This document shows positions 175 to 2,642 of a stretch of DNA of 64,000 nt, piece after piece. Source of the DNA: Acidobacteriota bacterium (GTDB lineage: Bacteria; Acidobacteriota; UBA890; WLXD01); contig CAXWPH010000014.1 in NCBI GenBank assembly GCA_963666055.2, positions 448,001 through 512,000 on the forward strand. Direction: 5' to 3'. Both the position numbers and the translations under genes were made by a program. Below the pieces are notes generated by a model. That model was not told where the DNA came from. It searched no databases and saw nothing but the letters and a program-made list of their open reading frames with translations. Positions within the stretch are counted from its first letter, which is position 1; every line of letters starts with the position of its first letter.

Positions 175-197
175 ATCACTATCAGACAGGAGGAGCC

Positions 198-1058
198 ATG
201 CGACGAATGATCACACGAGCCGTGGTGCTGCTGGTCAGCGTGAGCCTCTGGGCCATACCAGCGGTTCACGGACAGGAGCTCTCGGCGGAGGCCGGCCGCG
301 TCGTCGACTATCTGCTGCAGGATTGGCAACGCCAGTTCAGCTCGACGACGATTCCACACGCCATGCAGTTCATGGGAATGGACGTTGAAGACGACCTACG
401 GCTCGAGGTGGTGGCGCACCTACGCGACAACGATGGGCTGGCCCGCAACCTCCAGTGGTGGGGGGCCAACAACTACCTGTTCTCGAACCTCGAGAAGCGA
501 CTCGCCAAGTACTTGGTCCTCCTCCAGAAGCGCGCCGAGAAGCTGCCGACGGCCACCGAGGCCGCGCAGGCACTCGAGATTTCTGAGGCCGAGCTGCGTG
601 CCCGAATGGCGTTCATGGCGCAGTCCGGCTTCCTGGAGACGGCTGCCAACGACCTCGGCTTCGCACTAGCACCCGGGTTTCAACGGTGGGCCGGGCCTCT
701 TCAGCACAACTTCCATACCGTGCGGATCGACGGCAACGCGCCACTCGACGTTTGGTGAGCAATAGACTTCCTGCTGTTGGTCAACAGCGACGAGTACAAA
801 GACAAGCACATCACCCTAGAGGACTCCTGCGCGCACGGTTATCTGCCGATCAACGTCGAGATCGACGCCGCCGAGATCACCCACCTCATTCCGGACACGG
901 TGTGGGTTCAGCGGGGCGGTGGCTGAGCGGTCGACAATCTCTTCTGGTCAGAAGAGCACCTGAATGAGTGGTTGGATGAGAACCTGGAATACCGCGAGCT
1001 CAACCAGCAGCCGATTGGCGATTTCCTCGAGGAAATGAAGGCCGGCACGGCCGAGTAA
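198..1058 (+). CDS. Exported MerB-like (organomercurial lyase fold) protein with two predicted selenocysteines (UGA 756-758 and 924-926), 286 aa
   Basis: AGGAGG RBS before ATG198 and a signal peptide. Reading through the two TGAs gives W-U-AID, EDSCAHG, GGG-U-AVDNLFWS and LNEWLDEN, colinear with MerB WC96ALD99, SHC117, FC159CHVHFF and EDWASKH. Ends at TAA 1056-1058. Confidence 0.8.
759..788 (+). promoter_or_regulatory. Putative bacterial SECIS element for UGA 756-758
   Basis: Stem GCTGTT(773-778)/AACAGC(783-788) with a GGTC loop starting at position +21 after the UGA. Confidence 0.7.
927..956 (+). promoter_or_regulatory. Putative bacterial SECIS element for UGA 924-926
   Basis: Stem CTCTTCT(939-945)/AGAAGAG(950-956) with the same GGTC loop starting at position +20 after the UGA. 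Confidence 0.7.
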
Positions 1059-1490
1059 GGTCTCCTTCTGTCGGGCCTCACCCTGCTCGCCTTGGCGTCG
1101 TCCGCGCAGCGGTCGCCGAGGCTCAATCGGCGCGCAACGACCTCACCGCGTCAGCGTGTGGTCGGCCGAGTGCCGGACCGGCGATCGCCAGCAGATCGAT
1201 CTTGTCGGCGACCACGTCCTGGTTGGCGAAGGCCTCGTGCACATCGTCTCCCCCGATTGCGTTGACGGGTTCGCTCACGCATAGTCGCTATCATCAAACA
1301 CTTCAATCTTCTGGGACGATGGAGGCTGGTCGGACCCGGATCATGACGGCGTTTAGCTAGGTAGGCACCGAGGGCGAGCTGCTGGGCGGCGAACAGGACT
1401 AGTCGGCCGCCTTTCTGTCAATCTTGACGCCTTGTGCTGAGATGCACTCCGTGTGTCAGAGTGACCCGCGCCCAATCAGATCCTCGGTGG

Positions 1491-2642
1491 ATGCCGGCTG
1501 AGATGGACTTCTCGAGCGGATTTGGTAACTTCGAGGGCCGAGCCTGGCTCAACACGGCACACCAGGGTGCGCTTCCCCTCCGCGCCGCCGACGAGGTCCG
1601 TGAGGCCATCGAGTGGAAGCTCGCGCCGCGAAGTCTCACGCCGGAGCGTTTTCGAGGAGTGCCCGATCGGCTTCGCACCGCCATCGGTCGCCTGCTCCAT
1701 GCTCCGCCTGAAGAGATCATCCTCGCCAACAGCGCCTCGTACGGCCTGCACCTGGTCGCCCAAGCGTTCCCGTGGGAGGCCGGCGACGAGGTGCTGGTGA
1801 TGGCAGGCGACTTCCCCGCCGACATCCTCCCCTGGCTCGCCCTCGAACAACGGCAGGATGTGACCGTCCGTCGCATTCGCCCCGCGCACCGGGTCATCGA
1901 GCCGGAGGATCTCATCGCCGCACTAGGCCCAAGAACCCGCTTGTTGTGCACCACCTGGGTGCACTCCTTCTCCGGCTACACCATCGATCTGGCAGGCCTC
2001 GGGAAGATCTGCCGAGAGCACGGCATCATCTTTCTGCTCAACGTGTCTCAAGGCCTGGGCGCCGCGCCGCTGGATACGCGAACCGCTCCGATCGATGGGT
2101 TGGTGAGCGCCGGGCACAAATGGCTGTGCGGCCCATACGGCACGGGAATCTGTTGGCTCCGTCCCGACCTGCGCGAACGGCTCCGGCAGGTCAAGGCGTA
2201 TTGGCTCGCCATGCAGACGCAGGAAGAGCTCGGCGATGAAGTCGTCGACGTGGCCTTGAAAGAAGGTCTCGGCGCCCGCGCCTTCGATGTGTTCGGGACG
2301 GCGAACTTCTTCAACTTCAAGCCCGCCGCGGCAGCGGTCGAGCTGCTGCTGGAGCTCGGCGTCGAGCGAATTCGAGCGCACGACCAGGCGCTCGTATCGC
2401 GGCTCATTGCCGGACTCCCAGAGCCCTACGAGCTGCTGAGCCCGGCCGACGGGCCGCGCCGCTCGACCCTGGTCTTCATCTCGCACCGCGACCCGGGTCG
2501 GAACCGCGACGTGCATGCAGCGCTGGCCGCCGCAGGGGTGGACATCGCCTTTCGAAACGGCGCCCTGCGGGTTGCTCCGCATCTCTACAACACACCCGCC
2601 GATATCGACCGCGCACTCTCAGTTCTCGATTCGTTCGAATAA
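1491..2642 (+). CDS. Aminotransferase class V PLP-dependent enzyme (cysteine desulfurase/selenocysteine lyase-like fold)
   Basis: WLNTAHQG, SAGHKWLCGPYGTG (PLP lysine), LRVAPHLYNT. No C-terminal RxGxHC-type catalytic Cys loop is visible. Confidence 0.85.
   Translation: MPAEMDFSSGFGNFEGRAWLNTAHQGALPLRAADEVREAIEWKLAPRSLTPERFRGVPDRLRTAIGRLLHAPPEEIILANSASYGLHLVAQAFPWEAGDEVLVMAGDFPADILPWLALEQRQDVTVRRIRPAHRVIEPEDLIAALGPRTRLLCTTWVHSFSGYTIDLAGLGKICREHGIIFLLNVSQGLGAAPLDTRTAPIDGLVSAGHKWLCGPYGTGICWLRPDLRERLRQVKAYWLAMQTQEELGDEVVDVALKEGLGARAFDVFGTANFFNFKPAAAAVELLLELGVERIRAHDQALVSRLIAGLPEPYELLSPADGPRRSTLVFISHRDPGRNRDVHAALAAAGVDIAFRNGALRVAPHLYNTPADIDRALSVLDSFE

Follow-up and report, generated by a model that had tools for sequence, protein, structure and literature searches.

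Positions 198–1058 (+ strand) of the window, here meaning the whole 64,000-nucleotide stretch of Acidobacteriota DNA that was analysed, hold a single ORF whose product is probably a MerB-fold protein with two SECIS-directed selenocysteines; this protein is predicted to be exported, likely binds or cleaves organometals, and may be recycled by a TlpA-like partner. The ORF contains two in-frame TGA codons (756–758 and 924–926), each followed by a short hairpin, and the comparisons below make it very probable that SelB binds both hairpins and that both codons are read through with insertion of Sec. The features of the locus are as follows.

1–174, +: 3′ end of the upstream TlpA/redoxin gene (Redoxin E = 8e-15), with its WCAPC motif upstream of the window
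188–193, +: Shine-Dalgarno-like AGGAGG ahead of the ATG at 198 (from the sequence)
198–1058, +: MerB-fold ORF of 286 aa, with two TGA codons predicted to be read through and a TAA stop
198–272, +: signal-peptide-like N-terminus, residues 1–25, basic, then hydrophobic, with a small-residue end (by eye and hydropathy)
756–758, +: UGA1, predicted Sec187, MerB Cys96 equivalent (profile alignment)
765–767, +: Asp190, MerB Asp99 equivalent (alignment)
772–789, +: putative SECIS hairpin 1, 7 bp, GGUC loop 779–782 (+21)
828–830, +: Cys211, equivalent of the MerB structural Cys117 (alignment)
924–926, +: UGA2, predicted Sec243, MerB Cys159 equivalent (profile alignment)
939–956, +: putative SECIS hairpin 2, 7 bp, GGUC loop 946–949 (+20)

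The sequences around the two codons are WUAxD (site 1) and GGGU (site 2). A consensus scan found neither a sigma-70 promoter nor a + strand terminator.

Structure and stability of the hairpins

Hairpin 1 (TGCTGTT-GGTC-AACAGCG) and hairpin 2 (CTCTTCT-GGTC-AGAAGAG) have unlike stems and share a GGUC loop at nearly equal distances from the UGA, and they lie in different codon phases, all as the preliminary description of this DNA had claimed. The 6 bp it gave for stem 1 are present, and the stem is counted here as 7 bp with the inclusion of one U-G pair. In loop, stem and spacing both hairpins agree with the bacterial SECIS consensus, which in the available text of PMC13188914 is a 3–9 nt apical loop on a 4–16 bp stem, with G in the first two loop positions (G[G/U]), 16–37 nt from UGA to loop, and a minimum free energy (MFE) of ≤ −7.5 kcal/mol; the corresponding loop bases appear as G23/U24 in the accessible part of PMC8659212. 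The loops are of 4 nt (GGUC) on 7 bp and start at +21 and +20, and the context is also that of the consensus, with Sec machinery in the genome and the UGAs at Cys columns. The MFE is −9.9 and −7.9 kcal/mol for the UGA plus ~40 nt and −7.3 and −7.2 kcal/mol in 30-nt windows, such that agreement with the −7.5 threshold depends on the window chosen.

Folding of both regions, which had been proposed as a check, returns the 7-bp stems but gives stabilities no better than those of shuffled sequences, with no excess for either hairpin (z = −0.05, 0.93, −0.77, 0.47). In a 60-nt window at site 2 the minimum-energy fold differs from hairpin 2, and an Rfam scan of positions 600–1200 gave no match at E≤10. 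The weak z-scores favour a reading in which the two codons are genuine stops, the gene being dead or split, or else code for Trp, and in which the hairpins are a by-product of protein conservation.

Conservation and covariation

Homologs were drawn from three loci in GTDB genomes (titled Acidobacteriota), from eight of the 401 genomes examined in this phylum, the source genome among them, and from 22 metagenome loci. With duplicate records of one genome, copies lacking the site and two deletion variants excluded, the hairpin alignments contain 23 rows at site 1 and 24 at site 2. The site is TGA in all 23 and all 24 rows, the GGUC loop is invariant in both alignments, and both UGAs are retained, at Cys columns, in homologs down to ~50% protein identity.

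Pairing is maintained in 98.4% of cells in hairpin 1 and 100% in hairpin 2. The column beside the closing pair of hairpin 1 is U-A in 11, G-C in six and C-G in one of 18 distinct rows, and the closing pair of hairpin 2 is U-A in 15 and C-G in four of 19. Two-sided changes, sought in homologs as the preliminary description had suggested, are thus present in both hairpins (7/18 and 4/19 distinct rows). In each hairpin the covariation is confined to a single column, and since the sequences are related it may reflect few events. For hairpin 1, none of 500 shuffles scored as high and slid controls contained no two-sided change at all. The compensatory swaps in hairpin 1 alter the protein (LLVN to LVVT or LLVS), and the U-A to C-G swap in hairpin 2 replaces Trp with Arg and is matched by a Ser codon change from TCA to TCG. 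At positions where pairing requires it, infrequent codons are retained (TCA is 5% of Ser codons and TTG 12% of Leu codons genome-wide). In four public metagenome runs, the contigs of other organisms that match at ≥85% identity cluster chiefly on the regions of the two hairpins, as expected for constraint at the nucleotide level. The earlier proposal of selection on RNA structure is therefore borne out, with compensatory pairs present even at amino-acid cost, and the hairpins offer a clear natural example of a SECIS stem being preserved while the encoded residues change.

Not all copies are intact. The closing pair of hairpin 1 is broken in one homolog (L091), in which the Asp is also changed, and several other copies are broken or deleted; the broken ones (L005, L011, L012 and L084), together with a database entry (P0004) with W at both sites, favour the reading of the UGAs as stops or Trp codons. 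Retention of the UGAs to ~50% identity at Cys columns speaks against stops or Trp, the amino-acid-altering compensatory changes speak against a by-product of protein conservation, and that reading as a whole is extremely improbable. Since homologs keep the pairing through such changes, both hairpins are very likely real, conserved bacterial SECIS elements of an ordinary type.

In two further loci (L101:1598 and L104:811) UGA1 is joined directly to the sequence after UGA2 and the intervening segment is missing. In a close relative of these (L102) the same 12-nt word opens both sites, which suggests that the junctions arose either by deletion between short repeats or by assembly collapse. U-A-V-D likewise follows both UGAs.

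Selenocysteine machinery and other selenoproteins

The genome contains selB, selA and selD, each scoring over curated cut-offs, and two tRNA-Sec genes, and its ordinary genes do end in TGA; the tRNA-Sec genes and the TGA stops further oppose a Trp or stop reading of the two UGAs. SelD is a Cys form and has, fused at its N-terminus, a region resembling pyridine-nucleotide oxidoreductases. The selenoproteome is rich, with at least 23 family-supported Sec sites beyond the di-Sec gene. Candidates were taken from a coding-score scan (NCBIfam was searched with 38 of them and Pfam with 15 of the 38), and the 23 sites kept are those at which the context of the UGA is that of a known selenoprotein family: FdhA, PrdB-like, ArsM, DsrE, OsmC, AhpD, Rdx, Grx, Prx/TlpA-like, deiodinase-like, DUF3179 and rhodanese. 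A general SECIS model (stem ≥6, G[GU] in the first two loop positions, loop at +17 to +25) matches 22 of these 23 sites, a set partly chosen by a hairpin filter, compared with 49 of 1,823 true stops (2.7%); the unfiltered candidate list includes one more likely Prx-like site, which fails this model.

Several other features of the genome were recorded. Segments are repeated between C14 and C15 and between C7 and C10, with two copies of the Sec DsrE gene and of several tRNA clusters; either the DNA is duplicated or the assembly mixes strains. ARAGORN calls a tRNA-Pyl(CUA) at C5:65608–65685 (− strand); no pylS scores over the cut-off in the genome, and the call resembles a standard tRNA in variant or degenerate form. 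In the N-terminal part of two membrane Ser/Thr kinases with HRDIKPAN and DFG motifs (G000:C15:+:977056, L058/L117; G000:C14:-:293056, L050), an in-frame TGA belongs to a U-P-[ED]-TG motif and is followed by a SECIS-like hairpin. The TGA motif is present in 12 of 25 loci from same-order genomes, and in 11 of the 12 there is a G[GU] hairpin of 6–9 bp whose stem differs between loci; no in-frame Cys form was seen. This kinase family, absent from the selenoprotein table in the available text of the 2026 review (PMC13188914), is a candidate for either a new selenoprotein family or regulated read-through.

Distribution of the GGUC pattern

The preliminary description had also proposed UGA-N12–14-stem-GGUC-stem as a lineage-specific pattern with which to mine the selenoproteome. 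A GGTC loop at +18 to +22 with a stem of at least 5 pairs follows 35 of 135,924 genomic TGA triplets and none of 1,823 likely true TGA stops, rates that are only indicative because the pattern was defined after the two sites were seen. Only the UGA1 and UGA2 sites among the 35 have positive coding scores on both sides, the other 33 lying in non-coding frames. The pattern is common to both sites of the di-Sec gene, and GGUC loops at +22 follow the UGA in the kinase family of same-order relatives (L130, L131 and L135), which favours a lineage-specific signature. Against it, none of the 23 other Sec sites in the genome has the strict pattern: the FdhA loop is GUC at +20, the Prx/TlpA-like sites likewise differ, and loops elsewhere are CGUGU, AGUU, GGA and CGGGU. 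SelD, also named for this comparison, cannot serve since it is a Cys form here. Moreover, the loop is that of Escherichia coli fdhF (UGA-N18-GGUC, stem GGUUGCA/UGCACC, loop at +19). A lineage-specific GGUC signature is thus very unlikely, and its use as a mining tool is rejected on the 0/23 matches and the 33 of 35 in non-coding frames. What the two hairpins and the 23 other sites share is only the general stem with a G(G/U) loop, which is the consensus already published (PMC13188914, PMC8659212).

Fold and catalytic residues

MerB models match the protein weakly and under cut-off (PF03243, 19.8 vs 27; NF033555, 18.5 vs 200), and a 64-sequence profile of the family matches MerB2 (5C17) at E=3.6e-12 and also MerB (3F2G). 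In the profile alignment Sec187, Asp190, Cys211 and Sec243 fall on MerB Cys96, Asp99, Cys117 and Cys159, the residues named as the MerB signature in the accessible parts of PMC8261052 and PMC10114901. An AlphaFold model of the 286-aa protein (pLDDT 93) gives only MerB structures at E≤0.001 in Foldseek, the top 11 matches all being MerB, and a VIA structural comparison with MerB gives a Z of 11.1 and an rmsd of 2.2 over 118 residues, at 16–21% sequence identity. Residues 1–20 have low pLDDT in this model. Close homologs have leaders of similar type, family members occur both with and without leaders, and on these N-terminal features we regard export as probable.

The site 1 column is Cys in 37 of 43 homologs spanning it, and the Asp190 column is D in 32 and E in five of 43; the site 2 column is Cys in 12 of 23 spanning homologs, with eight gapped. 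Among 105 database representatives (50% clustering), 57 stop just before one of the Sec sites, 34 at query residue 186 (one spuriously) and 23 at residue 242, and full-length representatives mostly have Cys at the Sec columns. These end points and Cys columns indicate a broad family with Cys/Cys forms (P0002 is a natural example) and likely also Cys/Sec and Sec/Sec forms, the last two being predicted from truncated entries. Named members of the family are labelled 'hypothetical protein'.

Gene neighbourhood and possible function

The di-Sec gene is preceded, in order, by genes for an ECF sigma factor (Sigma70_r2/r4), a zf-HC2 anti-sigma factor and the TlpA protein. A TlpA motif is situated just upstream or fused at 18 of 29 loci; the 11 others comprise eight with too little upstream DNA, two gene fragments and one real miss. 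In a distant family of the phylum (L009/L110:9696–10706) the TlpA domain and the di-Sec MerB-like protein form a single in-frame fusion. Most neighbourhoods contain ECF/anti-sigma or BlaI/BlaR-type regulators and not mer genes, and in three same-family genomes canonical merB and merR adjoin the gene or lie within ~5 kb of it. No MerA scores over the cut-off in the source genome (best 395 vs 454 bits), and a search of that genome for PF03243 returned no match, as did its positive control.

Two further neighbours were noted. A class V aminotransferase gene (window 1434–2642, + strand) lies 375 nt downstream and is cysteine desulfurase/Sec lyase-like with all scores below cut-offs; it was not seen beside annotated homologs. 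In two relatives (L003:1199–1810 and L004:1145–1771) a gene upstream of the ECF sigma gene encodes a small exported protein, conserved and bearing an MPC motif; this protein appears heavy-metal-associated-like by eye and has no Pfam hit.

In the proposed mechanism SelB would recognise both hairpins, with UGA1 and UGA2 decoded as Sec187 and Sec243. By analogy with MerB, the two selenocysteines would coordinate R-M+ (an organomercurial or other soft metal) and Asp190 would act as proton donor to the carbon. TlpA would then reset the oxidised Se-Se pair or the metal set free, in place of a handover to a cytoplasmic MerA. The organometal substrate and the TlpA recycling, both drawn from this analogy, fall slightly short of an even chance. 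The likely role of the protein is that of an organometal lyase, or else a metal trap, which would act outside the cytoplasm and be recycled by TlpA. That an exported di-Sec lyase, with both metal ligands Se and a dedicated TlpA reset, might work in the cell envelope without MerA, demethylating methylmercury or related organometals there, seems unlikely.

The same SECIS elements and Sec insertion could instead serve a selenol/diselenide redox enzyme, a metal chaperone or an envelope sensor built on a MerB scaffold, with TlpA reducing the diselenide. The tight TlpA linkage or fusion, the ECF/anti-sigma or BlaR-type envelope-stress regulators and the lack of a MerA over cut-off in the source genome are each in keeping with such a role. 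Hg-Se bonds are very tight and would hinder lyase turnover, which points the same way. The retained catalytic Asp (D or E at the spanning homologs given above) and the merB/merR neighbours in three genomes tell against a non-lyase role, which we consider possible though doubtful. HgSe end products are described in the available text of PMC10114901.

A MerB-fold site with two Se ligands offers a ready test of the part Sec plays at a mercury-binding site. Surveys of methylmercury demethylation screen full-length gene calls for Cys96/Asp99/Cys159 (accessible part of PMC8261052), and would miss such a route because Cys96 and Cys159 are required and gene callers split the gene into three pieces; if organomercurials are indeed cleaved outside the cytoplasm, surveys of microbial methylmercury demethylation undercount this capacity.

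Comparison with known systems

The hairpins resemble the E. coli fdhF SECIS in lying within the ORF just 3′ of the UGA and in having a 7-bp upper stem with the identical GGUC; they differ in that there are two elements per gene, no bulged U is seen in the upper stem, and the stem sequences are unrelated.

The protein resembles MerB (EC 4.99.1.2; PDB 3F0O and 1S6L; MerB2 5C17) in its predicted fold, with a winged helix and a catalytic domain, and in its Asp99 and Cys117 equivalents. Unlike MerB, it has UGA at both the Cys96 and Cys159 positions, is distant in sequence, is probably exported, and is encoded in a genome without MerA over cut-off.

SaoL (NF040728) is a cytosolic protein of ~213 aa with one Sec in a CU motif, encoded in the nine-gene SAO operon of anaerobes (available text of Haft and Gwadz, bioRxiv 10.1101/2022.07.06.499078). 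As far as that text describes SaoL, the present protein resembles it in having a MerB fold, a Sec at the Cys159-equivalent site and truncation by gene callers; it differs in having two Sec (WUAxD and GGGU) rather than one in a CU motif, in its TlpA partner, and in an N-terminus with both a signal-peptide-like leader and an additional helical region. Site 1 is U where Cys is expected in SaoL, and site 2 is GGGU without a CU motif. The SaoL HMM scores 13.2 bits on the di-Sec protein against a cut-off of 140, its best E-value among the 64 alignment members is 6.6e-10, and by E-values no other named MerB-type model claims any of the 64. The flanking genes (ECF sigma, anti-sigma, TlpA and class V aminotransferase) are not those of an SAO operon, and a genome-wide search for SaoB gave no match, as did its positive control. 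By the features compared, the protein is likened to both MerB and SaoL yet is a member of neither.

SaoL is the only MerB-like selenoprotein family in Table 1 of the 2026 review, as available (PMC13188914), and likewise in the accessible part of PMC9312934; a term search of the available text of the deep-Sep paper (PMC12013277) gave no mention of MerB. A literature search, subscription papers and supplements aside, brought up no two-Sec MerB, its sole yield being the SaoL preprint and reviews in which SaoL is listed. The present locus supports a selenoprotein family absent from the 2026 inventory as available (PMC13188914), and what is probably new here is a di-Sec, TlpA-linked and probably exported MerB-fold gene, whose hairpins are themselves ordinary.
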